Shown here piece after piece: positions 17-62,950 of a DNA stretch of 64,000 bases (its first letter is position 1; every line of letters begins with the position of its first letter). The stretch is taken from positions 2,395-66,394 of the forward strand of contig JANLHL010000007.1 in assembly GCA_024654535.1 (NCBI GenBank), written 5' to 3'. The stretch is from Candidatus Roizmanbacteria bacterium (GTDB lineage Bacteria > Patescibacteriota > Microgenomatia > UBA1406). Under the pieces are notes generated by a model. The model was not told where the DNA came from and searched no databases. It saw nothing but the letters and a program-made list of their open reading frames with translations. The translations under genes were made by a program, and so were the position numbers.

Positions 17-93
17 TTTGAACTTAAGGTTTTAATTGACATTTGACATTGGATATTAGCGCTTTATTTGATATTTGATATTGGATATTTGGC
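17..93. repeat. Composite intergenic repeat, right-arm copy
   Basis: TTTGAAC..GACATTTGACATTGGATATT..TTTGATATTTGATATTGGATATTTGG, ending about 55 nt before the promoter of gene 161-2131. Confidence 0.8.
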
Positions 94-160
94 ATTCTAC
101 AATCGTTATTACGATTGTAGATTCCCTTGCATTTTTTTTACATGTCTTTACAATGTATGC

Positions 161-2131
161 ATGGATATTAAAAAGACCATAGAGCGAATAGAATCTGCAG
201 CACAACTTGCAATAGTTGCCCTTTTCCCACTTGTATTTTTCCCCATGTTTTCCGATGTTGTTGGGACAGCAAAGCTCTATTTTTTGGCAATAGCAACACT
301 CTTTTTAGTGGCACTCAAAGCAGTTAAAGTCGTCGTTACAAAACAGATTGAATGGAAAACGACCGGTTTCGAAACACCTCTCACATTGTTCGCTTTTGCC
401 TATGTACTATCAGCATTGGTAAGCGCCCCAAATAAAATTATGGCACTCACCGACCCGACACGTGGCGCACTTATGCCGGTACTCTTTGTAACACTCTACT
501 TTCTCTTACCGAAAAATAATAAAGCGGGCACGCTTATAGCAGCGTTTGTTTCACTCTTTGTGACAGCTCTTCTGACCGCACTGGTCTACTTTAAGGCATT
601 TTCATTTGTGCCAGATACGCTTGGATTTCTGAAGGTAAGTAGCTTTACTACAGTAGGAAACTATATATATCTCATTTTATTTGCCGCATTCTTGGGGGCA
701 GTTCTGCTACCTCACGTAACTGAAAGTGAAGAAATAAAAGACATGGCGACAGCTCATGGGGCTACTCAATTGAAGAAGGCTCGAAGTACAGCAGTAGATA
801 TGGTTTTCTTTGTCATAGCGCTTATTACTGCAATATTTAGCTCGTACGTACTGTTTAAAGACTTTAGCCCCCAATTTGTTTCATATGCTGCGACATGGCA
901 AACGTTCGTAGAGACCTTGAAAACACTTATGACTGGCCTTTTCGGTGTCGGTCCTGGAAATTATCTCACTATGTTTACTGTTGCGAAGCCCGCCTCGTAT
1001 AATGCGACGTCATTGTGGGCTCTCAATCCAGATCTTGGAGGAAGTGGACTCTTACACATAGCAACAGAAACAGGTATGCTTGGACTCTTAACGCTCGTCG
1101 CTATACTATTTATGTTTTTCAAAAGAACAAAAAAAACAGCTCTCTTTCCCGCATACATTGTACTTTTAGTATGGTTTGTGTTGGTACCATTAAGTCAAAT
1201 GACATGGTGGGCACTCTTTCTCTTTCTCATACTAACGACTACTTTTTCAAAGACACGTTCGTTTAATGCAGAGGAACTGCCAGTTATCTATATCGCACTC
1301 GCCGTTTTGGCTGCCGGCATAGTGGGTACAGGATCCTATTTCGGCTATCGCGGATATATGAGTCAATCTCTCTATTATCAGTCACTCGTAGCCTCACAAG
1401 CAAATCAAGCACAGCAACTTTATGATCTTCAGAACAGATCTATTATAGAGAACCCATATAATGAACAGACTCACTTGGCATTTTCTCAAACAAATTTGCT
1501 CTTAGCAAACAGCCTTTCTCAGAAAAAAGACCTAACCGACGCCGATAAACAAAATGTAAGCCAACTTATACAACAAGGTATTCAAGAGGCAAGAAACGTG
1601 GTTATTCTTAACCCACAACGAGCAGTATACTGGGCCAACTTGGGTGAAACATATAGAAGTGTACTGACAGTCGCCCAAGGAGCAGATGTTTGGGCAATTT
1701 CGAGTTATCAGAGAGCTATAGCCCTTGACCCACGCAATCCACAGTATTATTTTAGTCTTGGAAGCGTGTATTATGGACTTAAAAATTACGATGAAGCAAT
1801 ACGATTTTTCGGCAATGCAGTTTCATTGAAAACAGATATTCCTAACTACCAATACAACTTGGCGTGGGCTTACTATCAAAAACAAGACTACGTGCAAGCA
1901 GTCAACGCAATGCAAAGTACTCTACAACTAATCCCTGATAAGAAAAGCGCGGATTACAAAACAGCACAAAAAAACTTAGAAGAATTTCAAAAAATGGTAA
2001 AAGAAACTCAGCCTGCTCAAGATCAAACGGAACAAAATGCACAACCTGAGACATTATCACAACCATCCCCTATTCCAAGCATAACGCCTGAAATTTCACT
2101 AGCTCCCAATAACGCGCCCCCACAGCAATAA
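161..2131 (+). CDS. Polytopic membrane protein, O-antigen ligase (Wzy_C/WaaL-like) core with C-terminal TPR repeats
   Basis: From ORF 68-2131. The first 31 codons (TTG start) are translated intergenic repeat. The ATG at 161 lies 6 nt after TACAAT (149-154). About 10 hydrophobic helices. Loop GSGLLHIATETGMLGLL resembles the H..E.G..G loop of O-antigen ligases. The C-terminal ~200 aa are TPR-like (WANLGETY, YYFSLGSVYY, YNLAWAYYQKQDY). Confidence 0.6.
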   Translation: MDIKKTIERIESAAQLAIVALFPLVFFPMFSDVVGTAKLYFLAIATLFLVALKAVKVVVTKQIEWKTTGFETPLTLFAFAYVLSALVSAPNKIMALTDPTRGALMPVLFVTLYFLLPKNNKAGTLIAAFVSLFVTALLTALVYFKAFSFVPDTLGFLKVSSFTTVGNYIYLILFAAFLGAVLLPHVTESEEIKDMATAHGATQLKKARSTAVDMVFFVIALITAIFSSYVLFKDFSPQFVSYAATWQTFVETLKTLMTGLFGVGPGNYLTMFTVAKPASYNATSLWALNPDLGGSGLLHIATETGMLGLLTLVAILFMFFKRTKKTALFPAYIVLLVWFVLVPLSQMTWWALFLFLILTTTFSKTRSFNAEELPVIYIALAVLAAGIVGTGSYFGYRGYMSQSLYYQSLVASQANQAQQLYDLQNRSIIENPYNEQTHLAFSQTNLLLANSLSQKKDLTDADKQNVSQLIQQGIQEARNVVILNPQRAVYWANLGETYRSVLTVAQGADVWAISSYQRAIALDPRNPQYYFSLGSVYYGLKNYDEAIRFFGNAVSLKTDIPNYQYNLAWAYYQKQDYVQAVNAMQSTLQLIPDKKSADYKTAQKNLEEFQKMVKETQPAQDQTEQNAQPETLSQPSPIPSITPEISLAPNNAPPQQ

Positions 2132-2133
2132 CG

Positions 2134-2159
2134 CTTTATTTAGTCAAAACTAAATAAAG
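2134..2159 (+). terminator. Perfect 10-bp hairpin after gene 161-2131
   Basis: CTTTATTTAG-TCAAAA-CTAAATAAAG starts 3 nt after the stop and abuts the repeat box at 2160. Confidence 0.5.
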
Positions 2160-2302
2160 AATATCCAAGTTCAAATATCCAATATCAAAATATTGTCAAA
2201 TGACAAAGTTCAAATGTCCAATTTCGACATTTGTCATTTGGATTTGGATATTCTTTGGATATTTGAACTTGGGTATTGGGTATTGGGTATTGGATATTGA
2301 GG
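2160..2302. repeat. Composite intergenic repeat, full quasi-palindromic copy
   Basis: Left arm AATATCCAAGTTCAAATATCCAA...CAAATGACAAAGTTCAAATGTCCAA. Right arm GACATTTGTCATTTGGATTTGGATATTCTTTGGATATTTGAACTTGGGTATTGG. The arms share exact 18-nt and 11-nt complementary blocks. Confidence 0.9.
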
Positions 2303-2321
2303 ATTTGTTATAATGAACCCT

Positions 2322-3472: not shown

Positions 3473-4789
3473 CTATGATTTCGGTTCAACGAGCCTGCGC
3501 ACTGCTACCATAAAGGCAGCTTCCTTGAGCGAAACGTGTGATTTCTTCGCCTGTTCCCAAACCGCCAAAGCCGACTCCTCAAGAAGGTCTTGCATTTTTT
3601 TGTTTACCTTTGCTTCGCTCCAAACAGTCCCCTTCATTCCCTGTACCCACTCAAAGTAAGAAACAACAACGCCTCCAGCATTTGCAAGCACGTCTGGAAT
3701 AACGTAAATGCCCCTCTTTTGCAATATGGGATAGGCTTCTTTGGCAATGGGGCCATTGGCCATCTCAACAACTATTTTTGCCTGAATTTTATGCGCATTC
3801 TTTTCTGTTATGACATTTTCAAGGGCTGCAGGAACCAATATATCGACCGGTAACTCCAATAATTGTTCATTGGTTATGACTTTTCCTTCGTTGATATCAC
3901 ACACCCCACCAGAACAATAACAACCAGCAAGCGTGCCCTGCTTTTTTTTGCATCCCATCACCAGAGGAATGTCTAACGGCTCAAAGTGCTTACCTGCATT
4001 ATTTAACTTTGCATTTTTTACTATTCCACCCTTACTATCTGATACTGCGACAACATCGAAGCCTTCTTCAACGGCAATTTTCGCAAAATAATATCCAACA
4101 TTACCAAAACCTTGTACTGCAACCGTTAACTTTGCATTGCCTGCCATAACTTTAGTGAAGGTAGGATTTTTATTTTTTAGTTCTTTACCTAATTTTGAAA
4201 GCAACGCTTTCAGAACGATCACTCCCCCTCTACCGGTTGCTTCTGTTCTTCCAAGACTTCCACCTTTTTCGACTGGTTTACCGGTAAACGTTGCAGGAGC
4301 AGCTTGACCAGCCAACTTCTCATATTCATCAAGCATCCATTGCATGATAAGTGGGTTTGTATTTACGTCTGGGGCTGGTACATCTACTCGTGGTCCTATA
4401 ACGGGAAAAAGTGCCCGTACATATGAACGTGAAAGCTGCTCAAGTTCTTTCTTCGAAAGCTCCTTTGGATCGACGATTATCCCACCCTTTGCCCCACCAA
4501 ATGGTATGCCAGCCACTGCACATTTGATACTCATAAGAGTAGAGAGTGCAAGCACTTCTTCGCGAGACACTTGCGGATGAAATCGAATGCCACCCTTATA
4601 TGGCCCTCGCCTGTTATTGTGCTGGCTTCGATATCCAGTAAATACACGTTCACCTGTTTTGGTAGGAATGCTCACTTTCACCTCGATCACCCTATTGGGT
4701 TGAAGTAAAGTATCAATAACTTGTGCACTGTAACCTAACTTTTTTCCGGCCTCTTGTACTATATTTCGAGCAGTTTCAAGCATATCCAT
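3473..4789 (-). CDS. gdh: Glutamate dehydrogenase (Glu/Leu/Phe/Val dehydrogenase family)
   Basis: 438 aa. Motifs GGIRFHP, catalytic K-box GIPFGGAKGGI and Rossmann GFGNVG. Confidence 0.85.
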   Translation of the reverse strand: MDMLETARNIVQEAGKKLGYSAQVIDTLLQPNRVIEVKVSIPTKTGERVFTGYRSQHNNRRGPYKGGIRFHPQVSREEVLALSTLMSIKCAVAGIPFGGAKGGIIVDPKELSKKELEQLSRSYVRALFPVIGPRVDVPAPDVNTNPLIMQWMLDEYEKLAGQAAPATFTGKPVEKGGSLGRTEATGRGGVIVLKALLSKLGKELKNKNPTFTKVMAGNAKLTVAVQGFGNVGYYFAKIAVEEGFDVVAVSDSKGGIVKNAKLNNAGKHFEPLDIPLVMGCKKKQGTLAGCYCSGGVCDINEGKVITNEQLLELPVDILVPAALENVITEKNAHKIQAKIVVEMANGPIAKEAYPILQKRGIYVIPDVLANAGGVVVSYFEWVQGMKGTVWSEAKVNKKMQDLLEESALAVWEQAKKSHVSLKEAAFMVAVRRLVEPKS

Positions 4790-4812
4790 TCTGTTTAATT
4801 TAAAATTATTAA

Positions 4813-5853
4813 TTAAAAAATTTCGTTAAGGTATCGCTCAATCTCAAGTTCGGCCGCTACACCCATGCCAACGGCAGTTGCAGCTTGACGATACGTATGA
4901 TCAACACAGTCTCCTGCTGCAAATACACCAGTAAGGCATGTCGCTGATGCATACTCAAAATTGAAATTCAGATCGGTTGAAGAACCATTGCCCTTCGATG
5001 ATCTTGCATAACGTAAAGCTTCTTGTGAACTCGTTACTATGTACCCTTTTTTGTCGAGTACTACGGCTGAATCTCGTAAAAAATCTGTTGCTGGCTTATG
5101 TCCAATGGCAACAAAAATGCCATCAAGTTTCAATACTTCTCTTTTAGGGCTAACGCTATCCACCGACTGCAATCGAATACCTTCAACTTTTTCATCCCCA
5201 ATAACTTCTGATACGGTAGTATTCCAAATCACTTCAATCTTTTCATGTTTCAAGACACGATCTGCCATTATTTTCGATGCACGAAAAGCACTTCGTCTAT
5301 GAATGACGTAAACTTTTTTTGCAAATGTGGTCAAGGTAAGTGCTTCTTCCATGGCGCTATCTCCTCCACCTATCACTGCGACAGTCTTATCTCTGAAAAA
5401 AAATCCATCGCAGGTTGCACACGCACTAACACCTCGTCCACGTAGGCGTTGTTCTGAATCTAATCCCATCCAAATGGCGTCTGCCCCAGTTGCTAAGAGC
5501 ACACTATGCGCTTGAAAGGTTTGTTTGTCAGTCTTTATTCTATAGGTTCTAGGTGTCTTATTCGTCTTATTTTCAGCAGGCTCTATACCGATCACATTTT
5601 CCTGGATGAATTTCGTATCAAAGCGCTTTGCCTGCTCTCTAAATTGAGCAATGAGTTCTGGCCCTTGGATTCCCTTTGCAAAACCGGGATAGTTTTCAAC
5701 TTCAGTCGTAAGCATGAGCTGTCCTCCCGATGGCACCCCCTCTATAACGAGTGGGTCAAGCCCTGCTCGTCCTGCATAAATTGCTGCAGCCAAACCGGCA
5801 GGACCACCTCCAACGATGATAATGTTTTGAATTGTCGATTGATGTTTTTCCAT
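4813..5853 (-). CDS. trxB: Thioredoxin-disulfide reductase
   Basis: FAD motif VGGGPAGLAAA, redox-active CATCDG, NADPH motif GGGDSAMEEA. Start MEKHQ is preferred because GGGAGG lies 10 nt upstream, inside the end of the preceding gene. Confidence 0.9.
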   Translation of the reverse strand: MEKHQSTIQNIIIVGGGPAGLAAAIYAGRAGLDPLVIEGVPSGGQLMLTTEVENYPGFAKGIQGPELIAQFREQAKRFDTKFIQENVIGIEPAENKTNKTPRTYRIKTDKQTFQAHSVLLATGADAIWMGLDSEQRLRGRGVSACATCDGFFFRDKTVAVIGGGDSAMEEALTLTTFAKKVYVIHRRSAFRASKIMADRVLKHEKIEVIWNTTVSEVIGDEKVEGIRLQSVDSVSPKREVLKLDGIFVAIGHKPATDFLRDSAVVLDKKGYIVTSSQEALRYARSSKGNGSSTDLNFNFEYASATCLTGVFAAGDCVDHTYRQAATAVGMGVAAELEIERYLNEIF

Positions 5854-5857
5854 ACTA

Positions 5858-6139: not shown

Positions 6140-7465
6140 CTATCCCTGTTTCAGTTGTGCTAGAAACGTTTTGTTGTCTTTGGTTTTTCGCATTTTATCA
6201 ATCAAAGAGACCAATCGTTCATCCTCGCCCAAGAGAAGCAACATATGTCGAAGGGTTGCAATTTTTGAGAAATCGTCTTTACTCAACAATAATTCGTCAT
6301 GTCGCGTACCTGATTTCTCTACGTTTATAGCTGGATATATGCGTCGCTCCGCCATACGTCTATCTAAGTGCAACTCCATATTGCCAGTTCCCTTAAATTC
6401 TTCATAAATAAGGTCATCCATACGTGAACCTGTATCAATAAGCGCAGTGCCGATAATAGTAAGACTACCACCGCCCTCACAATTGCGCGCTGCTCCTAAA
6501 AAGCGTTTGGCAGGATATAGCGCTGCAGGATCAAATCCACCTGAGAGTGTTTTTCCCGAAGGTCCAACACTGAGGTTGTATGCCCGAGCTAACCGTGTAA
6601 TTGAATCGAGAATGATAACAACGTCTCGACCCATCTCAACTAATCGTTTCGCCCGCTCAAGCCCCAGTTCTGCTACCTTCGTTTGGTGCTCAGGCGATTC
6701 GTCAAAATTAGACGCAACAACTTCTCCTTGAATTGAACGACTCATATCGGTTACTTCTTCAGGCCGTTCACCAATAAGCGCTGCAATAATATGTACATCT
6801 GGGAAATTCTTCGTAATACCGGCTGCTATTTCTTTTAGCACCGTTGTCTTCCCAGCTTTTGGTGGAGAAACGACTAACCCACGTTGACCAAAACCAATTG
6901 GAGAGAATAAATCTATGATTCTATTTGATAATGCAGTCGAATCATACTCAAGCACAACGTGCTTCTCGGGATAGATAGATGTTAAGTCGTCAAAATTACC
7001 CCGTTCTACAAATCCAGCCTTAGGTTCTGTCCCATTGATTAACGTAATTTTCAAAAGCCCATGGTACCGTTCATTTTGTTTCGGAGGACGAGCAAGTCCG
7101 TTGACAAGATCTCCTTGGCGCAAACGAAATTTTCTAATCTGTGACATAGACACATATACATCATCATTTGATGGAGCAAATGTTGGTCTTAAAAATCCGT
7201 AACTCGTGTTCACAATGTCTAGGAATCCATGCACTTCAAATGACTGTTTTAAGTCGTCCTGAATACGTTGTTCAAACACCGGAGGTTGAGCAGTTGAATC
7301 GGAAACCATATGTACTGCCGCAGGTTCTGGGGCAGGCTCTGGGGCAGGCTCAGGTTCAGAAACAGCCGCGGAAACTGGCTTTTCCTGTTGAGGGGTTGTA
7401 ATGAATGTACTGACATCCAGAGCTTCATCTGAAGAATCTGGTATTTTTTTTACGCGTGTCACCAT
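6140..7465 (-). CDS. rho: Transcription termination factor Rho with P/E/A-rich N-terminal extension
   Basis: Walker A SPPKAGKTT and the Rho-specific RNA-binding and ATPase core (GFGFLRP-like YGFLRP, IIGTALIDTGSRMD). N-terminal EPEPAPEPAPEPAA is encoded by 12-nt tandem DNA repeats near 7320-7365. Confidence 0.95.
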   Translation of the reverse strand: MVTRVKKIPDSSDEALDVSTFITTPQQEKPVSAAVSEPEPAPEPAPEPAAVHMVSDSTAQPPVFEQRIQDDLKQSFEVHGFLDIVNTSYGFLRPTFAPSNDDVYVSMSQIRKFRLRQGDLVNGLARPPKQNERYHGLLKITLINGTEPKAGFVERGNFDDLTSIYPEKHVVLEYDSTALSNRIIDLFSPIGFGQRGLVVSPPKAGKTTVLKEIAAGITKNFPDVHIIAALIGERPEEVTDMSRSIQGEVVASNFDESPEHQTKVAELGLERAKRLVEMGRDVVIILDSITRLARAYNLSVGPSGKTLSGGFDPAALYPAKRFLGAARNCEGGGSLTIIGTALIDTGSRMDDLIYEEFKGTGNMELHLDRRMAERRIYPAINVEKSGTRHDELLLSKDDFSKIATLRHMLLLLGEDERLVSLIDKMRKTKDNKTFLAQLKQG

Positions 7466-7546
7466 GGAGAAAATAATAATTTATAAAAAACGAAATTAAC
7501 CTCGATATACAAAAAGGAAATAATTTACTTTTGAGTTCAAAATACC

Positions 7547-7742
7547 GCTACTATAAAGGTGTTTCACATTGATTTTTTCCCATTCTTGGGAAATGGGAAG
7601 GACTGAACTTCCGCGTTCATGCAGACTGAACGTGGCGAATCTCAGTACCTCATAGTTCCATTCTTCCTAAGAGAGAGTGGAACGTACCCTTTATTTTGTT
7701 GTATAGGAAAATATTTCAATGATCGTCACCCTTTATAGTAGC
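7547..7742 (-). ncRNA. Candidate structured RNA or rho leader domain (6S-like rod or attenuator; class unknown)
   Basis: 15-bp closing helix GCTACTATAAAGG(G)TG formed by 7547-7561 and 7727-7742. It encloses three strong hairpins (7577-7599, 7611-7635, 7655-7683). Minus-strand promoter TTGACA (7771-7776), 16 nt, TAAACT (7749-7754) predicts a 5' end at about 7742. The domain ends 81 nt before the rho ATG. Confidence 0.4.
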
Positions 7743-7807
7743 AAGTATAGTTTAGCAAAATTCTCATGCATGTCAACCACCATTGTCGTATATATATACG
7801 ACAATGG

Positions 7808-8010
7808 AATATCCAAGTTCAAATATCCAATGACAAACCCGCCTGCCCGCTTCGAAGCGAGGCGAGCCGGCGAGGCAGGTGAATGCCAAAACTCAAGTTT
7901 TAAAGTTAGACAGTAAGAATTTGACATAGGGATTTGGAGCTTCACTTGTCATTGGGACTTTGTCATTCGACATTACTTGGTTATGGATATTTGATATTGG
8001 ATATTGGAGT
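7808..8010. repeat. Composite intergenic repeat with embedded 41-nt GC-rich module
   Basis: Starts AATATCCAAGTTCAAATATCCAATG, carries the GC module at 7839-7879, and ends GATATTTGATATTGGATATTGG. Confidence 0.9.
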
Positions 8011-8031
8011 TTCCTGCTATATACTTCCCCT

Positions 8032-11600: not shown

Positions 11601-13218
11601 TACGTTGAGCCAGTTGGTCACCCTGCGTCGCACGCTGAGAAATTTCAGTTTTTAGACGTACAAAAGCCGCCCTATCTGTCGTGCTTTCTGCAGACATGGG
11701 GTTACTCATATATCCAGAAAGTTCATGATAGTACTGGCTTTTCTCTTTGCTCGTTTCGAAACGAGCTATATCACGTAAGTTCTCGACACGTACATCCAAT
11801 TTTTGTGCAAGTTTTGCTGTTTCAACATTTTTGATACTTGTATTTTCTGGCACTTTTGCAACTATAGAATCTTTTATTTTCATCTTATCTTGCATCGAAA
11901 TAACCGCTGGCCTCCTAAGTGCTTCCTCTCGAGTCTGCGATGGGGACGGCTGTGGACTTGGTGCAATACCGCCACCATTGAGCATATTCATGAGAATGTT
12001 TCGCATTGCATAAATACCGTCACAACAATAATCTCTAAAAATGCGAAGCAGCCACCACGGCAAAATAATAACCGTCCAAAGCATAATGAGTGCTATCACA
12101 TACTCTGCAAATGTATCAATGTATCCCGAAGTATTGATAGGTCCAGATTCAGATAGAGCAGCACCTAACCCCCCAGCCCTCTGTGCAGGCCCTCCATACA
12201 GTATATTTATAGCAAGTGGATAGACTACTCGTTGCGATGCGTCGCATGTAGCAGATGTTGCAGCCATATACGCCGGTTCGCACGACTGTTTAGCGCGCGT
12301 AAAATCAAATCCAAATGGGATGCCGCTTGCCCATATTTTCGCCATAGCTCCCAAGAAAAGTGCAAATAACGGCCCGTAAAAAGCCCATTGGAAAAATACT
12401 CCTATCCAAATCCATCCGATATTACGAATAAATACAAAGGGCATAAGTATGGCCAAAAAAGGCGCGACAACAAGCAGAAACCATAATACTATTTTACGAA
12501 GCAGTAACATAATACCCATGACAAAATAGGTGAATGAAGTAAAATTGATCAAAAAAAGCGACGAACGAGCACTTTCTTCAAATTGCATACCAATTCTTTT
12601 GTAACCTTGGAACGTAATATACCCCTCCTCCGATTGTTGTAGAGCATGAGCTGCATCTGTGTTTCCGGTTACAAAGAAAATTTTAAACAACTGATCACCG
12701 TTCAATATTTTTATAAAAAATTGCATGATAATATCGGTAAGTTGAATAAGGGCAAGTATGATGAGGTATGAAAATACTATATATAAGAGCCATATAGCTG
12801 TCTTATACAAAATAGGTACGACATCCACTTTAAATGACACGTCTTTTTTCCGAGCTATCAATACCCCTATACCCATAAACGCAACCACTATCAAAATGAG
12901 AAAGAGCGCTGTTCCAGCAGAAACGAGCCATATTTGCCGAAACACAGGATGGTTATCTATAGATGGATGATCTAATACCCAGTTGATAAACTGCCGCGCT
13001 CGCTCTCCGCGCTTGCCTGCAACGGTCACTTCTTGGTCTGGCACCCACTCATTCGATGTCCATGGAATTGTCGGCGTCGGAGAAGGTTGTGCATAGACTG
13101 GTTGTACGTGAACAATAGAAACAAAAAATGACGCAACGACAAAAATAGCGAGCAATAGAGTGAAGTATTTTTGACCGTTGCCTTGTTTGACGTTGGATAT
13201 TGGATATTTATTTGACAT
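8626..13218 (-). CDS. Giant membrane protein: signal peptide, VirB6/TrbL-like polytopic domain, ~1000-aa S/T/Q-rich helical-motif tail, acidic C-terminus
   Basis: 1530 aa. N-terminal signal peptide (LLLAIFVVASFFVSIVHVQPVYAQ). At least 6 TM helices in aa 95-400. At least 20 copies of an amphipathic motif of the type [ST]xxx[VI]xx[VI]Lxx[LV]. The VirB6-like call rests on topology and genomic context only. Confidence 0.5.
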   Translation of the reverse strand: MSNKYPISNVKQGNGQKYFTLLLAIFVVASFFVSIVHVQPVYAQPSPTPTIPWTSNEWVPDQEVTVAGKRGERARQFINWVLDHPSIDNHPVFRQIWLVSAGTALFLILIVVAFMGIGVLIARKKDVSFKVDVVPILYKTAIWLLYIVFSYLIILALIQLTDIIMQFFIKILNGDQLFKIFFVTGNTDAAHALQQSEEGYITFQGYKRIGMQFEESARSSLFLINFTSFTYFVMGIMLLLRKIVLWFLLVVAPFLAILMPFVFIRNIGWIWIGVFFQWAFYGPLFALFLGAMAKIWASGIPFGFDFTRAKQSCEPAYMAATSATCDASQRVVYPLAINILYGGPAQRAGGLGAALSESGPINTSGYIDTFAEYVIALIMLWTVIILPWWLLRIFRDYCCDGIYAMRNILMNMLNGGGIAPSPQPSPSQTREEALRRPAVISMQDKMKIKDSIVAKVPENTSIKNVETAKLAQKLDVRVENLRDIARFETSKEKSQYYHELSGYMSNPMSAESTTDRAAFVRLKTEISQRATQGDQLAQRILAATTATSVGVREHIRMLAQDRPAVTTVSQAIAKATTMKSDQVTRVLEAWVSELKNHTDYLEQIAKNTQSTASMVQNVLNALPKSAQTSNVREYIEKVSGTSSTSSSITSRILQSAASIIDKNVVEKISKMASVTSDHVINVLEKLRETDSSSNSNIEHILINETKESKQTIESALTALSNMSSEKSFIEKVSQSSTTSHETVEKVLTSLPSVASSPIAQAMDVVSKNAQTTQETVTRILESVSSVLESTHETEKMLQTIAQTIGVDNKTITQFITTTARFMSELQSQTSSLSSILVSQNVSEKNQKELFTALSKSSNSQVERSAHEKDFTSEKTQAVIQSIAQHITEPAQTMLAAVAKEQNMTTQAVQSISTSIFSHLHDSLKSVQSIQTQSDATKISTDKLTAVASVLSSVQSQKNSVTDSSVQQTSSEREQANRSIQEIVHLITSSNQSMDNIMSSASATHDEVSQVLSQISSTTAQNSTEGLVTQISKQSNVASEVVERVLSSVMSEVEKESVATSLIEEIARQTNTTQHDVSSAMSNFATLLSSSPQQQPLATYLSAQTQIAQESIVPLLSAVSKVALAQEDLVEKTAHTQQVSKEVVTSILTEALSTHSTDTSESLVSRMSDKTQLSTIAVQSVLNNVYSSFAEKTKTDHALIETVAKIAGVDTQHAQALVNNLSSLSFASPQQQPLATKQSTMNTEQMQSIITALVNQMSKDKILIENFSRQYNVSQEKISQLMQLVPTMVAQPPVQMVEHLAHDTSLSTSVVSQILKSMLVEIHGGNKESIIQKISSNEHIEVEKMRDILLTVLDKKGRKKSTRIPAQMSLGAHIDIDDLISEEDSLSVDEYEEIKQMWINHYLHGEVPVSETIKTREDWVHKDIIDIENVLNKIVSEDEDVRAEGLQQVADIIPFFMLANMSVTDVAVYLKAKRAAAKEVNEMMMRESAVKTRLQAQSQEEFIDVDRTQAESAPKAQEMSMNIEEDEKEKN

Positions 13219-13249
13219 TGGATATTGGATATTGGTTATTTGATATTTC
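13194..13249. repeat. Composite intergenic repeat, right-arm copy overlapping the start of the 1530-aa gene
   Basis: TTGGATATTGGATATTTATTTGACATTGGATATTGGATATTGGTTATTTGATATTTC. Confidence 0.8.
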
Positions 13250-13391
13250 TATATAACTATAGATGAAATGATAAAATAAAGCAATCGAAAGCCAGCAGAA
13301 TGATACATACTAGTACCAAAAAATGCACGTTCGGAATAAAACCTAGTACTTTGGAATGGGTAAGTTCAAACATTCTTGGAGAAGAATTCTT

Positions 13392-13400
13392 TGCTATAAT
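13392..13400 (+). promoter_or_regulatory. Extended -10 promoter TGcTATAAT for tRNA-Ala
   Basis: TGcTATAAT ends 14 nt before the tRNA 5' end. Confidence 0.55.
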
Positions 13401-13414
13401 GTAAAAAATAGAGA

Positions 13415-13533: not shown

Positions 13534-13608
13534 TCATTTGACGTTCTTTTTGATATTGGAACTTGGGAATTGGTCATTTATTGGATATTGGATATTTAAA
13601 CTTGGATA
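13534..13608. repeat. Composite intergenic repeat, right-arm copy
   Basis: TTTGACG..TTGATATTGGAACTTGGGAATTGG..TTGGATATTGGATATTTAAACTTGGATA. Confidence 0.75.
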
Positions 13609-13632
13609 GTACGATTTTCTTTAAAAAATCGT

Positions 13633-18933: not shown

Positions 18934-20214
18934 ATGACAAGCGTGTCAGAATCTTTTAGACAGCAATGCCCACCACTCCAGTACGTTCCAACACGATCAC
19001 CTATTCATAGCGAAGCAGGGACAGTTATTCCGAGAGCACTTGAGGTTACATACGAACATTCAATGAATATGTGGGAAACAATGAATGCTTTGATGGCAGA
19101 AAAATTAGATCGCACACATTCACAGATTGTCATTGTTCCACATGCGCATGATTTCTCTACTCCATTAGCGCGTTCACTAGATACAAACCAGATAGGTCCA
19201 TATACTCCTGGTTTTTCAACGAGAAGTAGTTGGCCAGATAATGAGATGCATGTTACTCTGAAAGGTGTACAAGCACACGTAGATCATACGTATGTCGTTG
19301 CATCCCCAACAGAAACAAATAGTCTGTTTGAACTTATGCTTACTCTCGATGCTCTAAAGCGTACATATAATACTGGCTGTATAACATTGATATGTCCATT
19401 TTTGACAGGAGGGAGAGGAGATAAAAACGTTGATAAACAAGGCGATCCTCAGCTTGGTGAGGCCTTAAATATCCGCACTGTTATGGGAATGTTTAGAGAA
19501 TACGTGGATAGAATGGTCGTTTTTGAACCACACTCTAGCGCAACTCAAGCATGTGCTGCAGAAAACAATATCCCGCTCGCACCTTTTTCGCTTGGAACAG
19601 TCATGCTTGATCATATTATGAAAAATGGCGTTGCCAAAGTTAGGGGTGGTGTCCAAAGAGTAAATCCGGACCCAGATGAGTTCGTCCTCATACGACCCGA
19701 CGAAGGTAGAAATAGATCACTTAAGCTCATTGAAAGAACGAGCAGGCTACCAAGCGTGGGTTTTGACAAAACAAGACTATCGGGTAGCGAAACAAGAATG
19801 AATGGTTTAACAACTGATGAAATTAACCTCGTTAAAGGTCGGGTTGGCTTTGGCTATGATGATGAATACTCTACAGGAGGTACTCTAGAAAAAATTTTAG
19901 ACCAACTTAAAGAGTATGGCATGGTCGCATTCGCCTTCATGGTAGCACATTGGAAAGGGCCCGATAACGCTATGGGCAAAGAAGATTGGAGGACGCGGAT
20001 CCAACACCCACTTTTAACTGCCATGGCGGTGAGTAATTCGAGAGCTCCGGTAGGAAGTCTGTATAAACCTGGAACTGATACGCTATCGGAGTTAGCAGCC
20101 GGAATAGAAATCGTGTCGTTAGTAGATTTTATCCGCCAAGTAATAACTGCAGATATGCAAGGGGTTAATTTTTGGGATGACCCCGACTGGAGCAAGCTAC
20201 TTCTCCAGGGATAA
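18934..20214 (+). CDS. Divergent ribose-phosphate pyrophosphokinase (Prs)-like / phosphoribosyltransferase-fold protein
   Basis: Collinear with Prs. YVVASPTETNSLFELMLTLDALKR corresponds to IIQS...NDNLMELL..DALRR. ITLICPFLTGGRGDKN corresponds to IPYFGYARQDRR. VVFEPHS corresponds to TVDLHA. The PRPP loop is GYDDEYSTGGT. The catalytic ARQDR is replaced by GRGDK. Confidence 0.55.
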   Translation: MTSVSESFRQQCPPLQYVPTRSPIHSEAGTVIPRALEVTYEHSMNMWETMNALMAEKLDRTHSQIVIVPHAHDFSTPLARSLDTNQIGPYTPGFSTRSSWPDNEMHVTLKGVQAHVDHTYVVASPTETNSLFELMLTLDALKRTYNTGCITLICPFLTGGRGDKNVDKQGDPQLGEALNIRTVMGMFREYVDRMVVFEPHSSATQACAAENNIPLAPFSLGTVMLDHIMKNGVAKVRGGVQRVNPDPDEFVLIRPDEGRNRSLKLIERTSRLPSVGFDKTRLSGSETRMNGLTTDEINLVKGRVGFGYDDEYSTGGTLEKILDQLKEYGMVAFAFMVAHWKGPDNAMGKEDWRTRIQHPLLTAMAVSNSRAPVGSLYKPGTDTLSELAAGIEIVSLVDFIRQVITADMQGVNFWDDPDWSKLLLQG

Positions 20215-20241
20215 ACCCCTTGCTCTTTTCTAGAGGTGAAA

Positions 20242-20466
20242 TTACTTCACATCTCTCAAAAGCTCAGCTACAGAAATATCTAGCTTGTTCGCTATTTTTG
20301 CTAAGAGTCGCAACGATGGGTTAGCACCGGCCGACTCTATACGGCTAATGTATGTTCTATCTACGTGAGCAATAAAAGCAAGCTCTTCTTGCGATATTCC
20401 CTTTTGTTTGCGTAACACGCTTATACGCTTACCGACTATGTTATTTACCATAATAGTAAAAATCAT
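20242..20466 (-). CDS. XRE-family helix-turn-helix transcriptional regulator
   Basis: HTH_3 signature LRKQKGISQEELAFIAHVDRTYISRIESAGANPSLRLLAKIANKL. The ATG at 20466 is 5 nt after TGaTATACT (20472-20480). The longer ORF starts at a TTG. Confidence 0.85.
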   Translation of the reverse strand: MIFTIMVNNIVGKRISVLRKQKGISQEELAFIAHVDRTYISRIESAGANPSLRLLAKIANKLDISVAELLRDVK

Positions 20467-20730
20467 CCCATAGTATATCATATTCACCATACCAAAGCAA
20501 ATCACACTAGGCCATACCAATATTATACATATCAGATGTGTATAATATGAAATACTTTTCTTTCCTTAGAAAGGTCATATTTTACGGTTGACGGAAAAGT
20601 ATGCAGCAGCTATAAGAGTAATTACCAGTATCCCCAGCCCCACACACCTTCACATACTGACCGAACGACAATACATTAATTTGAGCTTGTTTAAAAAAAT
20701 CTGAAATGATTTGCGTTATAATAGCCATAT

Positions 20731-38468: not shown

Positions 38469-38502
38469 ACTATTTATAAGTATCCGAGTTTACAATACTG
38501 TT

Positions 38503-38931: not shown

Positions 38932-38954
38932 CCACTGTTGCATTGCACAACGGT

Positions 38955-41531: not shown

Positions 41532-41655
41532 GGGGAAATCCCAAGTTCAAATATCAAATATCAGAATTGGACATTTGAACTTTGACATTTGTTGGATATT
41601 TGTCATTGGATATTGGAATTTCAGTGGATATTGGGATTTGGATATTTGATATTCC
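41532..41655. repeat. Composite intergenic repeat, full copy
   Basis: GGGGAAATCCCAAGTTCAAATATCAAATATCAGAATTGGACATTTGAACTTTGACATTTGTTGGATATTTGTCATTGGATATTGG...GGATATTTGATATTCC. Confidence 0.9.
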
Positions 41656-41677
41656 ATGTACCCTACGTGGTACGTGG
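41654..41677 (-). terminator. Hairpin CCACGTACC-N6-GGTACATGG immediately after the stop of 41680-42534
   Basis: 9-bp stem with one G:U pair. It starts 2 nt after the TAG and is directly followed by the repeat element box AATATCAAATATCCAAAT. Confidence 0.45.
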
Positions 41678-53546: not shown

Positions 53547-53662
53547 GAAATCATTGTATAGAGATATGCGAAAATATCCAACCTACTTGTCTATCTGCGC
53601 AGGCAAGCAAATGGCAAAGTTCAAATGTCAAAAAATATGTCGTTAGAATGACGGATAACTCA

Positions 53663-54261: not shown

Positions 54262-54376
54262 AATATCCAAGTTCAAATTTCCAATATCAAATAAAGTTCC
54301 AAATCCTAATGACAAATTCAAAAGTTGGACATTTGAATTTTGACATTCTTTGGAAATTGGGTATTGGTTATTTGTC
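54262..54376. repeat. Composite intergenic repeat, full copy
   Basis: AATATCCAAGTTCAAATTTCCAATATCAAATAAAGTTCCAAATCC..ATGACAAATTC..GGACATTTGAATTTTGACATTCTTTGGAAATTGGGTATTGGTTATTTGTC. Confidence 0.9.
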
Positions 54377-54377
54377 A

Positions 54378-54785
54378 TTACTTAACTTTCCCCAATTTAT
54401 CCCATTCTTTTTTTAAATAGGAACGAAGTGTTACTGTTTTTGCACGCTTTTTTTTAAGTACATTTTTGAATTTCAAAAGCGCCTTCTCAACTGCTACAAA
54501 ATAGTCTTGTTGCTTCACTTCGGCTATCGTTCCATTGAGTGCCGACACATTTTTTAACACTTCATCGTGTATGTCTTGATACAGCTTTGAGCTTTGTTCT
54601 GAAACAGTACCGAATATTTCTGTAACCTTTTTATCGAGGCCCTTCTCTTTCAATAATGCTTCGAGCTCGTTGTATTTCTTTTGAGCGAGTTCTCTGTTCT
54701 GCTTACCAGAACGAGGAGATAAGAAGAACGCAGTGAGGGTACCGAGAACAAGTCCAGTGACAAAGGCGAATTTTGATTTTTTCAT
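54378..54785 (-). CDS. YtxH-like membrane-associated protein
   Basis: N-terminus KFAFVTGLVLGTLTAFFLSPRSGKQNRE matches the YtxH G...G...L.AP.SG...R signature. The rest is helical. Confidence 0.6.
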   Translation of the reverse strand: MKKSKFAFVTGLVLGTLTAFFLSPRSGKQNRELAQKKYNELEALLKEKGLDKKVTEIFGTVSEQSSKLYQDIHDEVLKNVSALNGTIAEVKQQDYFVAVEKALLKFKNVLKKKRAKTVTLRSYLKKEWDKLGKVK

Positions 54786-57050: not shown

Positions 57051-57086
57051 ACGAAAAAAGGAGCCTCCTTCTAAAGGAGGCTCCTT
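57051..57086 (-). terminator. Intrinsic terminator of groESL (also a hairpin for the convergent + gene)
   Basis: Perfect 13-bp stem AAGGAGCCTCCTT/AAGGAGGCTCCTT (57058-57070 and 57074-57086) with a 3-nt loop. On the minus strand it is followed by TTTTTTCG. Confidence 0.8.
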
Positions 57087-57106
57087 CAACGAATTTGCAA
57101 TTTCAA

Positions 57107-58765
<1,659 letters not shown>

Positions 58766-58803: not shown

Positions 58804-59091
58804 TTAATTCTCGACGACTGCCATAATTTCTTTTTGTTCAATTAAGAGCCACTCTTCGTGAGAATCGGTTTTGATTTCGTTACCTGCCCATTTTTTATAG
58901 ACAACTTTTTGTTTCGGTTTAACCACCATTTTTTCTTTATCGGTGCCTGGACCAACTGCCATAACCATACCCATCTGAGGCTTCTCTTTAGCGCTGTCGG
59001 GCAAGACTATACCTGAGGCAGTTTTTTGCTCAGCTTCGAGCGGTTTTATAAGTACATTCGTGAACAGGGGCTTTATTGCAGTACCTTTCAT
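58804..59091 (-). CDS. groS: Co-chaperonin GroES
   Basis: 95 aa. IKPL..NVLIKP.E.E.KTASGIVLPDSAKEKP is the canonical mobile-loop region. Confidence 0.95.
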   Translation of the reverse strand: MKGTAIKPLFTNVLIKPLEAEQKTASGIVLPDSAKEKPQMGMVMAVGPGTDKEKMVVKPKQKVVYKKWAGNEIKTDSHEEWLLIEQKEIMAVVEN

Positions 59092-59144: not shown

Positions 59145-59179
59145 TAAGCACTTTGTCAAGAGGTGTGATAAAGTGCTAA
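59145..59179 (-). promoter_or_regulatory. CIRCE-like inverted repeat overlapping the groESL promoter
   Basis: On the minus strand: TTAGCACTT-N17-AAGTGCTTA. The spacer contains TTGACA. Canonical CIRCE is TTAGCACTC-N9-GAGTGCTAA, so the half-sites match but the spacing does not. Confidence 0.45.
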
Positions 59180-59200
59180 ACCATGCACTGCACAGTGCAT

Positions 59201-59358
59201 GGAATATCCAAGTTCAAATATCCAATATCCAAATAATAAGGTTTGACATTTGTCATTGGGATTTGGAACTTTATTTGACATTGGATATTGGATATTGGGT
59301 ATTGGGTATTGGATATTGGATATTGGGTATTGGGTATTGGATATTGGTTATTGGTGTT
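59201..59358. repeat. Composite intergenic repeat with expanded heptamer array
   Basis: GGAATATCCAAGTTCAAATATCCAATATCCAAAT...TTTGACATTTGTCATTGGGATTTGG..., then 11 consecutive TTGGNTA heptamers (59281-59357) organised as a duplicated 28-nt unit. Confidence 0.9.
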
Positions 59359-59378
59359 TCTTTTGCTATTATTATTCC

Positions 59379-60280: not shown

Positions 60281-60408
60281 AATGACAAATATCCAATATC
60301 AAATATCAAATAAATGTCAAAGTTCAAATGTCCAATTGAAAAATTGTGAGGATTTTTGCCTTACTTTGTCATTGGGATTTGGATATTCCTTGGATATTGG
60401 TTATTGGC
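60281..60408. repeat. Composite intergenic repeat, full copy
   Basis: AATGACAAATATCCAATATCAAATATCAAATAAATGTCAAAGTTCAAATGTCCAATTG...CTTTGTCATTGGGATTTGGATATTCCTTGGATATTGGTTATTGG. Confidence 0.9.
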
Positions 60409-60418
60409 AATAAACATC

Positions 60419-61069: not shown

Positions 61070-62868
61070 TATTTGGCAACAAAAAAAATAAAGGCAAAGA
61101 AGAGCCGGCGCAAAAAATAGACACAAGCGCACTAGCTGCTCAATCGGCAACACAGGCTGACGTAGTGACCGATAAAATAGCAAAACGCTTTTCATTGGGA
61201 ATGACTAGTATAGGGGATATCATAGCCCCTTCTTTTGTCGATGTCGATTTTTCAAGTATTACCATCGACAAACACCTCTATACCACCCTCTTTGTTGTGG
61301 GTTATCCACGCTATGTAGGACCAAACTGGATGAATGCTCTCATCACCTTTGACCATCCGCTATTCATATCTATGTTCGTCTACCCAACGCAGTCGAAGAT
61401 AGTACTTGATGATTTGAAACGGAAAATTGGAGAAATGGAGGCGACGGTGGAAAGCCAGGTAAGAGCGGGTAAAGTTGTCGACCCAACGGTACAGGTAACA
61501 CTCGATGATGCACTGTCGCTGCAGGCTGAAATTGCAAAAGGCGCAGAACGATTTTTTCAATTTGGTCTGTACATTACCATCCCTGCTGCAACCGCAGAAG
61601 AGTTGGAAGGCACAACAAAAGAGGTCATGAGCGTTTTGAGTTCGCTTCTCATAATTTCAAAACGCGGAGTGCTTGAGGCCGAAGAAGGCTTTAAATCAAC
61701 ACTACCGCTTTTCATGGATAGGCTTGCCGTATGGCGAAATATGGATACCTCTTCTTTGGCTATGACGTTTCCATTCATTACCTCTTCGCTGAGTGAAGAT
61801 AAAGGGATTCTCTACGGCGTAAACCAGAGCGACTCAAGCCTCGTTATATTCGACCGATTTTCTCTTGAGAACGCAAACCTTGTCGTCTTGGGTAAGAGCG
61901 GTGGCGGAAAAAGCTTCCTAGTAAAGCTCGACGTAATGAGGCAACTGATGATAGGTATTGACGTAATCATTGTCGACCCTGAAAACGAGTATCAGAATGT
62001 GTGCCGCAAGTTTGGCGGAGAATTTGTTCAGTTTTCACTTTCATCACCCATCCGTATAAACCCTTTTGACCTGCCCATAGGCCAAGAGGAAGAAGATGCT
62101 CTTGCAACAAATATTTTATCTCTCCATACCTTAATGACGGTCATAATGGGAGAATTGTCACCCGAGGAAGATGCACTCTTAGATAAAGCACTGGTCATGA
62201 CCTATCAACAAAAAGGGATAACGCAGGACCCTCTCACCCATCAAAACGAACCACCTCTTATGGAAGATTTATATAAAGTGCTACTTGGAATGGAACAAGA
62301 AGCTTCGCAAGCAATGGCGTTTCGGTTTGAAAAATTCATAAAAGGTTCTGCTTCGGGTATATTTAATTCACAATCTAATTTTGAATTCAAAAATAAGCTC
62401 ACTGTTTTTGGCATACGAGACTTGGAAGAAAACCTACGCCCGGTCGCTATGTATGTCGTCCTTGACTACATTTGGACAAAAGTTCGACATGAAAAGAAAC
62501 AGCGAGAACTCATCATAGATGAAGCCTGGTATCTGATAAAGCAAAAAGAAACGGCAGAGTACATATTCAACTTTGCAAAACGAGCACGCAAGTATGGCTT
62601 GGGCTTAACGACTATTACCCAAGATGTTGAAGACTTCTTAGGAACAAATGAGGGAAAAGCTATTATTACGAATTCAAGCATGCAGGTACTACTCAAACAA
62701 TCTCCTGTCGCCATAGATAAACTCGCCGATATTTTTTACCTAACCTCTGGAGAAAAGCACTTTTTGCTTTCAGGAGGGGTCGGAGAAGGTTTGCTCTTTG
62801 CTGGACCAGCTCACGTCGCTATGCAGGTTATTGCTGCTCCCCACGAAAAAGAAATAATCGAAGAGTAA
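61066..62868 (+). CDS. VirB4/TraE/PrgJ-like type IV secretion ATPase
   Basis: N-terminal IAPSFVDVDFSSITIDKHLYTTLFVVGYPRYVGPNWMNAL (CagE/TrbE/VirB-type). Walker A LGKSGGGKSF, Walker B LIIDEAWYL, and ARKYGLGLTTITQD. Confidence 0.8.
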   Translation: MIFGNKKNKGKEEPAQKIDTSALAAQSATQADVVTDKIAKRFSLGMTSIGDIIAPSFVDVDFSSITIDKHLYTTLFVVGYPRYVGPNWMNALITFDHPLFISMFVYPTQSKIVLDDLKRKIGEMEATVESQVRAGKVVDPTVQVTLDDALSLQAEIAKGAERFFQFGLYITIPAATAEELEGTTKEVMSVLSSLLIISKRGVLEAEEGFKSTLPLFMDRLAVWRNMDTSSLAMTFPFITSSLSEDKGILYGVNQSDSSLVIFDRFSLENANLVVLGKSGGGKSFLVKLDVMRQLMIGIDVIIVDPENEYQNVCRKFGGEFVQFSLSSPIRINPFDLPIGQEEEDALATNILSLHTLMTVIMGELSPEEDALLDKALVMTYQQKGITQDPLTHQNEPPLMEDLYKVLLGMEQEASQAMAFRFEKFIKGSASGIFNSQSNFEFKNKLTVFGIRDLEENLRPVAMYVVLDYIWTKVRHEKKQRELIIDEAWYLIKQKETAEYIFNFAKRARKYGLGLTTITQDVEDFLGTNEGKAIITNSSMQVLLKQSPVAIDKLADIFYLTSGEKHFLLSGGVGEGLLFAGPAHVAMQVIAAPHEKEIIEE

Positions 62869-62902
62869 CCATATATTTTTTAGTATTCTAAAAAATATAT
62901 GG
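62869..62902 (+). terminator. Perfect 15-bp hairpin after the VirB4-like gene
   Basis: CCATATATTTTTTAG-TATT-CTAAAAAATATATGG starts 1 nt after the stop. It is followed directly by the repeat box AATATCCAAGTTCAAATATCCAA rather than a U-tract. Confidence 0.5.
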
Positions 62903-62950
62903 AATATCCAAGTTCAAATATCCAAAGAATGTCAAAGTTCAAATGACAAA
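62901..62950. repeat. Composite intergenic repeat, left arm only
   Basis: GGAATATCCAAGTTCAAATATCCAAAGAATGTCAAAGTTCAAATGACAA. Confidence 0.85.

Follow-up and report, generated by a model that had tools for sequence, protein, structure and literature searches.

Results

A repeat family in the spacers

The stretch of DNA analysed in this study (the window) comprises 64,000 nt of contig JANLHL010000007.1 from a Candidatus Roizmanbacteria genome, with a coding density of 91 %, and its genes are separated by spacers that harbour a single family of AT-rich, palindromic repeats built from 7-nt units (heptads). Heptad arrays were found at each of the 16 sites listed in a preliminary description of this sequence, and one extra, degenerate copy brings the total to 17. 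Together the copies account for 2,066 nt, or 3.2 % of the window, and they make up 35 % of the non-coding DNA in it. Gene bodies are free of copies, as 15 of the 17 are wholly intergenic and the remaining two (13186 and 42500) extend into the predicted 5' ends of open reading frames (ORFs). The elements range in size from 110 to 230 nt and have no coding capacity, and the GC content of their arms is 29 % compared to ~41 % for the window. These repeats are a clade-restricted, non-coding, non-autonomous palindromic family that is previously undescribed, and they belong among the known bacterial repeat types rather than to a new type of system.

Allowing up to two mismatches, the 16-mer ATATCCAAGTTCAAAT was matched 22 times in the window against 0.12 expected, and TTKG motifs spaced by exactly 7 nt formed 43 runs of three or more (165 heptads), compared to approximately none in Markov shuffles. 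An nhmmer profile of the arm gave 26 arm matches in the window (E<1e-3), and Tandem Repeats Finder reported a period of 7 at each listed site. The exact 23-mer AATATCCAAGTTCAAATATCCAA occurs at 2160, 7808, 38957, 59203 and 62903, the five sites at which a near-identical left end had been noticed. Copies lie at gene boundaries of all types, in agreement with the preliminary description; by our own count they occupy 6/16 tandem, 3/5 convergent and 6/10 divergent spacers of at least 40 nt.

Searches of Rfam and of the literature found no described family to which the heptad elements could be assigned, and domain searches found no transposase domain in any ORF of the window; on both points the preliminary description was confirmed. 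Using both gathering and E-value thresholds, only two tRNAs in the window matched Rfam, and the best score on an element was to a plant microRNA model (27.8 bits, against a gathering score of 110 bits). Comparison of the elements with phages and plasmids by blastn gave zero matches, and the sole matches in scans of viral contigs were isolated TTGGATA microsatellites and a single 22-mer, all judged to be unrelated.

The copies are listed below by their position in the window; L-numbered loci (L005, L006 and so on) are related contigs that were compared with it.

17-120, reverse strand: copy cut by the window start; TTKG heptad arm (19-96) and a unique perfect hairpin (97-120; CTACAATCGT/ACGATTGTAG) ending 5 nt before the -35 box TTGCAT of a forward gene that starts at 163; the L006 ortholog retains this hairpin via two compensatory pair changes.
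2134-2306, forward strand: full copy; hairpin 2134-2159, separated by 2 nt from the preceding stop codon (2129-2131); the left arm spans 2160-2222 and the right arm 2230-2298, with TGTTATAAT next and the ATG of a leaderless gene at 2322; predicted folding energy (dG) -61 kcal/mol, z -9.6.
7780-8015, forward strand: full copy; hairpin 7780-7807, 3 nt off the -35 box of the rho promoter; outer left block 7808-7837, GC-rich insert 7839-7879 and right arm 7947-8008, followed by the promoter of a SpoU-type methylase.
13186-13247, reverse strand: single arm of two blocks 25 nt apart, between a gene of 1530 aa and tRNA-Ala; overlaps a predicted start codon at 13218 and is almost identical in L014-L016.
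13537-13632, reverse strand: single arm (13537-13608) and hairpin 13611-13632, which directly abuts the stop codon (13633) of arginyl-tRNA synthetase (ArgRS); relatives have a full copy, and the TGGGTAT heptad count differs among strains.
26749-26870, unstranded: full copy with no adjacent hairpin; arms 26749-26803 and 26807-26866.
32979-33120, forward strand: full copy lying between divergent genes; its hairpin (32979-33004) is 10 nt away from TTGACA, the -35 box of the gene on the minus strand; the arms (33003-33055 and 33060-33112) are followed by the tail GGGATTTC, by TATAAT and by the ATG at 33144; L013 has a different hairpin and only three heptads at this site.
34566-34592, forward strand: three-heptad remnant TTTGATATTGGATATTTGGGT between tRNA-Leu and a leaderless forward gene.
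38306-38470, forward strand: full copy with an extended left arm and no hairpin, beginning 2 nt past the stop codon at 38303; the right arm terminates ahead of TACAAT and ATG at 38503; a 14-nt (two-heptad) indel separates L013 from L014.
38932-39119, forward strand: full copy in a convergent spacer; hairpin 38932-38956, from the base right past the stop codon (38931); outer left block 38957-38986, GC-rich insert 38988-39028, and right arm to 39116, 3 nt short of the stop codon of the minus-strand gene.
41543-41677, reverse strand: full copy in the spacer of tandem genes on the minus strand; hairpin 41654-41677, 2 nt beyond a stop codon (41680), with three compensatory pair changes relative to L005; long arm 41567-41653 and short arm 41543-41565, ending in GGGATTTCC ahead of the next gene.
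42500-42529, reverse strand: four perfect TTGGATA heptads, 8 nt past the stop codon of a 1315-aa gene and inside the predicted 5' end of the next ORF.
53574-53632, unstranded: degenerate remnant AAATATCCAA ... CAAAGTTCAAATGTCAAA, missing from the preliminary description.
54262-54379, unstranded: full copy between tandem minus-strand genes, 8 nt from ATG at 54253 and overlapping a stop codon at 54378.
59181-59360, forward strand: full copy in a divergent spacer; hairpin 59181-59202 adjoins a CIRCE-like operator of groES; left arm 59203-59236; right arm 59242-59357, a 12-heptad run with 28-nt super-repeats, then TATTAT and ATG; L009 has a different perfect hairpin here, with five compensatory pairs.
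60281-60411, forward strand: full copy with no hairpin, 5 nt past the stop codon at 60275; arms 60281-60335 and 60365-60411.
62869-62950, forward strand: half copy; 15-bp hairpin 62869-62902 right after the stop codon (62868), left arm 62903-62950 and no right arm.

The heptad arrays that enter the predicted 5' ends of two ORFs (13186-13218 and 42495-42534) are translated in frame as ...YPISN..VKQ... preceding a hydrophobic N-terminus, and a GGGAG Shine-Dalgarno-like motif lies ahead of the ATG at 42534. At these two ORFs the repeat may have been taken up into the coding sequence of a signal peptide, or the start codons may have been mis-called.

Architecture of the element

The preliminary description had assembled the element from 8-mer units, which prove to be overlapping views of a single 7-nt heptad, TTKGNNN on the G-containing strand, in strict 7-nt register. 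The heptads counted were TTGGATA (47), TTTGAAC (16), TTTGACA (15), TTTGATA (14), TTTGTCA (13) and TTGGGTA (11). In an arm of ~52 nt, three heptads form an inner block and at least four an outer block, with a linker of 4 nt between them, so that the two blocks start exactly 25 nt apart (3x7+4) and give step patterns such as 7,7,7,11,7,7. The consensus of 14 aligned arms reads AATATCC four times, then (T/A/C)(A/G)AA, then TGTCAAAGTTCAAATGTCCAA. The left arm is the reverse complement of the right arm, i.e. the ~52-nt arm is present as an inverted duplication, and each of the 22 neighbouring arm pairs in the window and at ten related loci has the (+,-) orientation, with the inner blocks face to face; no other arrangement was found among these pairs. 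The inverted-repeat termini of the element are AATATCCAA...TTGGATATT. Its two ends are unlike, as one is the 23-mer given above and the other finishes ...TTGGATATTGGGATTTCYT, and the terminal modules are distinct, with AATATCCAAGTTCAAAT at the hairpin side and TTGGATATTGGGATTTC at the promoter side.

Full copies were predicted to fold as long hairpins, as had been proposed, with dG values of -27 to -73 kcal/mol; five of the listed sites are, however, single arms (17-96, 13186-13247, 13537-13608, 42500-42529 and 62903-62950) and a sixth is the three-heptad remnant at 34566-34592. Relative to dinucleotide shuffles, 6 of the 10 full copies (2132, 7794, 26745, 32984, 38930 and 59179) gave z values of -5 to -10 (-4.0 for 26745 on the minus strand), compared to only -0.7 to -3.5 for the other four (38304, 41540, 54248 and 60279). 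Fold energy by strand showed no consistent relation to the direction of transcription, and RNAalifold on eight copies, for which the alignment was poor, returned no consensus structure. In-register complementarity of the arms was 0.69 within elements and 0.78 between elements. Because arms of the same element are less complementary than arms of different elements, the arm-arm hairpin is a consequence of ancestry and is not maintained; selection on arm-arm pairing was rejected, and a long hairpin or cruciform is not supported as the selected feature.

The copies at 7780 and 38932 carry a nested GC-rich mini-hairpin at the linker (7839-7879 and 38988-39028). This is a second, tiny palindromic repeat with the core CCCGCCTGCCGGC(G/T)AGGCAGG, which is 41 nt long in the window copies and nested at the 4-nt linker. 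Relatives have a 21-nt version, in L005 (about 335-358) and in L009 (near 9560, reverse strand). In L009 it occupies the opposite arm and orientation, and the corresponding window copy (about 59260) lacks it, which suggests that the mini-repeat has moved more recently than the heptad elements.

Stem-loops at the outer edges

Many outer ends of the elements abut a perfect stem-loop of 8-15 bp whose sequence is particular to each copy. Nine such hairpins were identified in the window (97-120, 2134-2159, 7780-7807, 13611-13632, 32979-33004, 38932-38956, 41654-41677, 59181-59202 and 62869-62902), five of which begin 0-3 nt past a stop codon. Across all loci, hairpin-adjacent ends were found 10 times at gene 3' ends, three times in divergent spacers and three times elsewhere. 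Arms that meet a gene 3' end without a hairpin start 2-8 nt past the stop codon, and in divergent spacers the hairpin is found upstream of the adjacent -35 box, at a distance of 3-10 nt. Past the hairpins, one strand continues with AAUAUCCAAG and the other with U-poor sequence, which is not the stem and U-tract arrangement of an intrinsic terminator.

Comparison of 72 orthologous stem pairs found 54 to be unchanged, 14 with double compensatory changes, four with one-sided changes and three broken. At 59181 and 32979 relatives have an essentially different, yet still perfect, hairpin at the same position. As double compensatory changes dominate the differences between orthologous stems, the outer hairpins are under structural constraint, whereas the long arms show no constraint on pairing.

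Vertical inheritance and remodelling of copies

The window's ArgRS is 100 % identical to a protein of a Candidatus Roizmanbacteria metagenome-assembled genome, which identifies the organism. Relatives were identified by an exact scan for the 23-mer, which yielded 12 metagenome contigs, five of them syntenic with the window at 77-86 % nucleotide identity; exact-protein look-ups added three further related contigs. Copies were found at orthologous sites in L005, L006, L009, L010, L013, L014 and L016, and each element site covered by these relatives (~11 orthologous sites) is also occupied there, with no filled-versus-empty polymorphism. No target-site duplication was detected, as the flanks of six clean copies (AAAG/GAGG, ACAG/GGGA, ATAG/TCCT, GTGG/TCCT, AGTA/GGCA and TTGT/ACTT) have no shared direct repeat, although old copies may have lost their duplications since insertion. 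[quoted passage not shown] The arm profile gave zero matches on L017, L018 and L019 (53 kb); L017 is a Roizmanbacteria contig with a 62 % identical ArgRS and the same SpoU-rho synteny, and the ArgRS of L018 and L019 is 53 % identical. The family expanded across the spacers of a narrow clade's ancestor, and its present inheritance is vertical, at fixed sites.

Within these sites the elements have been remodelled. Three contigs with identical ArgRS, L016, L014 and L015, have one, two and four copies of TGGGTAT, respectively, and a super-repeat of 28 nt lies at 59280-59354 in the window itself; the number of heptads drifts through slippage. Deletion and recombination breakpoints also coincide with copies. 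At 62903, L009 has a full copy and an extra gene of ~1.4 kb, and the breakpoint is the centre of the element. In L014 (17400-17660) the 7780 copy's SpoU side is fused to the 38932 copy's hairpin side; the crossover falls within ~35 shared nt, and the two copies are 31 kb apart in the window; L016, despite an ArgRS identical to that of L014, retains the window arrangement. The L014 junction reflects either recombination between copies or a chimeric assembly.

A scan of GTDB genomes with the 23-mer returned one match only, in a metagenome-assembled genome of Flavobacteriales (JANOXJ010000052), where the repeat context is different. There, three tandem units of ~117 nt (L001, 120-420) stand directly after a gene whose C-terminus resembles, by eye, a type IX secretion system sorting domain. 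A similar heptad vocabulary occurs in another phylum, since each of these units contains TTGGATATTTGAACTTGGATATTGGATATT-like heptads.

A gene for a 233-aa IS200-like Y1 transposase (PF01797, 28.5 bits) is present in L014 and L015 at 4418-5119, flanked by the GC-rich hairpins CACCACCGGGAGGT...ACCTCCCGGTGGTG and not by heptad arms. The orthologous window site (20214-20548) lacks it and no Y1 homolog was found elsewhere in the window; the adjacent helix-turn-helix gene (20242-20520) is 95 % identical between the genomes, compared to ~80 % for the flanks. A link to the repetitive extragenic palindrome (REP) and RAYT system was rejected, as the L014 transposase has no flanking heptad arms and is absent from the window.

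Transcription context

Genes in the window appear to be leaderless, with an extended -10 box (TGnTATAAT or TATACT) followed after 6-7 nt by ATG, and promoters without an element have a clear TTGACA -35 box. The outer end of the element lies 14-54 nt ahead of the leaderless ATG and hence 2-40 nt from the -10 box, a range that replaces the 20-50 nt given previously. In ~5 of 10 cases a distance of 16-18 nt separates the last heptad from the -10 box, which is near the 3/7 expected from a 7-nt lattice, and this spacing was rejected as evidence for the proposed -35 scaffold.

The window encodes Rho (6140-7465) with an intact RNA-binding domain. Hairpin-plus-U terminators were not enriched in the window (19, against 14.8 expected) or in L017 (19 against 16). 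GC-rich perfect hairpins were found at element-free gene ends (25628-25663, 57057-57087 and 63068-63084, the first followed by T7), which suggests that conventional terminators and elements occupy different gene ends.

The arms as entered by a transcript contain 22.6 % C, 6.7 % G and 46.7 % A, and have 1.30 pyrimidine-cytosine (YC) dinucleotides per 7 nt, compared to 0.74 for the whole window. Primary binding sites of Rho are described by a (YC)N9-13 spacing criterion (PMC6144790). The 7-nt lattice gives YC pairs 14 nt apart, inside this rule; chains at N9-13 spacing reach only 2-5 dimers in most arms (50-60 nt), and the complementary arm follows. Rho-dependent transcripts have been found with a steady-state 3' end at a stem-loop without a U-tract, and rut predictions peak ~50 nt downstream (PMC13613805). 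The order observed here of stop codon, stem-loop and arm is the same as this published layout.

Other features of the window

Between a promoter and the hairpin of the 59181 element, at 59150-59180, lies a CIRCE-like inverted repeat, TTAGCACTT...AAGTGCTTA (minus strand), upstream of groES-groEL (58804-59091 and 57107-58762). Upstream of rho, conservation of 7466-7776 with L006 exceeds that of coding DNA. The rho promoter (TTGACA-16-TAAACT, 7776-7749) implies a leader of ~275 nt, and rho is possibly autoregulated; in this region the window has a 32-nt hairpin insertion that L006 lacks. The spacer at 13250-13414, upstream of tRNA-Ala, is ~97 % identical to relatives whose genes are ~80 % identical, and may represent a conserved leader, a promoter region or a small RNA. 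A 580-nt non-coding stretch (26870-27450), which is GC-rich relative to the window, has many short hairpins and no Rfam match, may be a divergent structured RNA. It is followed by four tandem forward genes without Pfam domains (27450-30626), separated by spacers of exactly 66 nt; the last two spacers end nearly alike (...ACACAATCTATAGCTT..GGCGCCGCTGAATGGTATA) and the first has only the 3' end GCGCCGCTGAATGGTATA in common with them, and the genes look like a paralog array.

Discussion

Comparison with known bacterial repeats

The best reading of this family is an old, fixed repeat of the kind that includes MITEs, BOX elements and bacterial interspersed mosaic elements (BIMEs). The heptad elements resemble the BOX elements of Streptococcus pneumoniae (boxA-boxB(n)-boxC) and SPRITE, which are dispersed, modular and intergenic, measure under 200 to ~600 nt, vary among strains in the copy number of an internal module and are predicted to form stem-loops when transcribed (PMC3049150). 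SPRITE also shows enrichment at the 3' ends of genes, and a role as a co-opted terminator has been suggested for it (PMC3049150). The boxB module is, however, ~45 nt rather than 7 nt, and the arms described here are mirrored and draw on the same heptad vocabulary; unlike BOX and SPRITE, the heptad elements lack a hairpin-plus-U design, each copy is flanked by a hairpin of its own, and the sequences are not similar. The BOX plan of terminal modules around a strain-variable tandem module is shared in architecture only and without sequence homology.

Similarities were also seen with the Correia elements of Neisseria (CREE/nemis) and other prokaryotic MITEs, which are 100-200 nt long, AT-rich, dense and intergenic with terminal inverted repeats, have ends near promoters that resemble sigma-70 boxes, and give transcripts that fold into hairpins (PMC10969869). 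MITEs are defined as short (<500 bp), non-coding and AT-rich, with terminal inverted repeats of 4-30 bp, and the heptad elements, at 110-230 nt, fit this description. Signs of mobility were not found: no TA or other target-site duplication was seen, nor any mobilisation or presence/absence polymorphism among the relatives, there is no known parent insertion sequence and no transposase in the window, and the elements differ from MITEs in their internal heptad lattice.

REP/BIME sequences of enterobacteria, which are associated with RAYT Y1 transposases, are likewise extragenic palindromes at gene ends that form composite clusters, and they have been implicated in mRNA 3'-end stabilisation and termination (PMC3733652). 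REPs differ in being GC-rich, 20-40 nt long and headed by GTAG or CGTC; the heptad elements are AT-rich, 110-230 nt long and have no such head. Rho-dependent attenuation occurs at BIMEs. The nested 21-nt GC-rich mini-hairpin CCCGCCTGCCGGCGAGGCAGG is more REP-like than the heptad element, and the only Y1 transposase found, that of L014, is flanked by unrelated GC-rich hairpins.

The STRR heptamers of cyanobacteria are comparable intergenic heptamer repeats. Arrays of TAACTGA in Beggiatoaceae, Cyanobacteria and Bacteroidetes are also intergenic, with 7-nt units, variable copy number and a patchy phylogeny; they are direct repeats of a single heptamer, mostly placed just upstream of start codons (PMC4679880). 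The heptad elements, in contrast, have a degenerate vocabulary, two ordered blocks, a mirrored palindrome and distinct termini. Rho-dependent terminators appear to share with them the succession of stop codon, stem-loop without U-tract and a ~50-60-nt tract of C>G composition with regular YC dimers (PMC13613805, PMC6144790). Known rut sites, however, are non-repeated and have no fixed sequence, whereas the tract described here would be supplied by a repeat and followed by its own complement.

A possible role in transcript punctuation

We tentatively read the elements as bidirectional transcript punctuation. Owing to the mirrored arms, a transcript arriving from either direction would first copy the G-poor, A/C-rich strand of an arm, in which YC occurs about every 7 nt, a candidate Rho-loading (rut-like) tract. 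At many gene ends this arm is preceded by the perfect, site-unique stem-loop 0-3 nt past the stop codon, which might form a stable, exonuclease-resistant mRNA 3' end and act as a pause point for RNA coming from the other side. The opposite arm's outer end lies immediately ahead of the extended -10 box of the next leaderless gene, the promoter of which would thereby be insulated. The terminator or insulator role first proposed for the whole element survives in altered form, with constraint on the small outer-edge hairpin and an adjacent arm that looks rut-like.

Several observations weigh against this punctuation role. Divergent spacers, which no annotated transcript enters, are occupied as often (6/10) as tandem and convergent ones. 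The arm is G-depleted rather than C-enriched, a short arm yields 3-5 YC dimers at N9-13 spacing and not 6, and the complementary arm follows directly and could sequester the rut-like tract. Orthologs are 0.71-0.92 identical at the individual heptad phases, none of which is conspicuous, and the value for other intergenic DNA is 0.83; the comparison gives no support for selection on the heptad core and, because array identity equals that of other intergenic DNA, the persistence of copies needs no selection at this divergence. The perfection of the hairpins could also stem from templated correction within the palindrome rather than from selection. A bolder form, in which a domesticated repeat, paired at each site with its own stem-loop, serves as a general 'full stop' in a genome with leaderless transcription, loads Rho both ways, insulates nearly every other transcription unit and replaces intrinsic terminators, or in which a DNA-binding protein that counts heptads reads the lattice and organises the chromosome, seems unlikely to us.

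Alternative explanations

A selfish, MITE-like relic is nearly as likely as transcript punctuation and is a serious possibility: an ancestral burst would have been tolerated in the spacers without host function and slowly remodelled by slippage, deletion and ectopic recombination, and the hairpins would stem from a preference to insert into hairpin DNA, or would be by-products of mutation that palindrome correction keeps perfect. The inverted-repeat termini, size, AT-richness and lack of coding capacity are as expected of such a relic, and the single ordered arm consensus across copies points to descent from a master copy. It would also account for the similar frequency in all spacer types, the ortholog identity equal to that of other intergenic DNA and the absence of co-evolution between the arms of one element; moreover, a smaller mini-repeat inserts into elements and a relative has a Y1 transposase gene. 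However, target-site duplications, a transposase with matching ends and filled/empty polymorphism at the ~11 orthologous sites were all missing, the elements take up 35 % of the spacer DNA in a streamlined, 91 % coding genome, the element edges are tightly fitted between stop codons and core promoters, and the hairpins show 14 compensatory pair changes. Less probable still are protein-binding arrays acting at the level of DNA, in which a protein would coat the arms with one heptad per subunit. The ribbon-helix-helix omega repressor of pSM19035 binds 7-bp heptad arrays in direct and inverted orientation, and an omega-like repressor, a nucleoid or partition protein, or the sigma or alpha subunit of RNA polymerase, using TTGACA-like heptads as -35 or UP scaffolds, would be candidate binders. 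The strict register, fixed 4-bp linker, invariant head-to-head layout and independence of transcription direction would suit such a protein, as would the resemblance of TTTGACA and TTGGATA to the organism's own -35 box TTGACA and the position of arm ends 14-54 nt upstream of leaderless start codons. Common descent and slippage explain the register and linker equally well, though, no heptad position is preferentially conserved between orthologs, the spacing between final heptad and -10 box does no better than chance (3/7), half of the arm ends face gene 3' ends, and no candidate binding protein was identified.

It is very improbable that the long arm-arm hairpin is itself functional, whether in RNA, as a structured molecule, a substrate of RNase III or an intrinsic terminator, or in DNA, as a cruciform. 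The strong predicted folds of six full copies and the deletion breakpoints at element centres speak for it; set against these are the lower complementarity within than between elements, the five single-armed sites, the absence of a U-tract after the stem, and the lack of an Rfam match or, from a poor alignment, of an RNAalifold consensus. An assembly artefact (repeat collapse, expansion or chimeric joins) is hardly credible: heptad counts and the L014 junction do come from short-read metagenome assemblies, but the same copies recur between the same genes in assemblies made independently from several JGI and ENA samples.

Significance

Patescibacteria, or the candidate phyla radiation, have tiny, densely coding genomes in which the starts and stops of transcription are almost uncharted, and in this window a single family makes up about a third of the spacer DNA, placed between stop codons and leaderless promoters. 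If the terminator or insulator role is true, these elements would clearly exemplify the genome-wide co-option of a repeat for punctuating transcripts, and would give a sequence handle with which to predict the transcription units of the clade. Even if the family is selfish, it indicates that a streamlined genome can bear and retain a dense repeat load, that this repeat coincides with deletion and recombination breakpoints, and that heptad slippage provides strain-level markers. The site-unique hairpins, with their compensating changes, offer a clean natural dataset on the maintenance of stem-loops.

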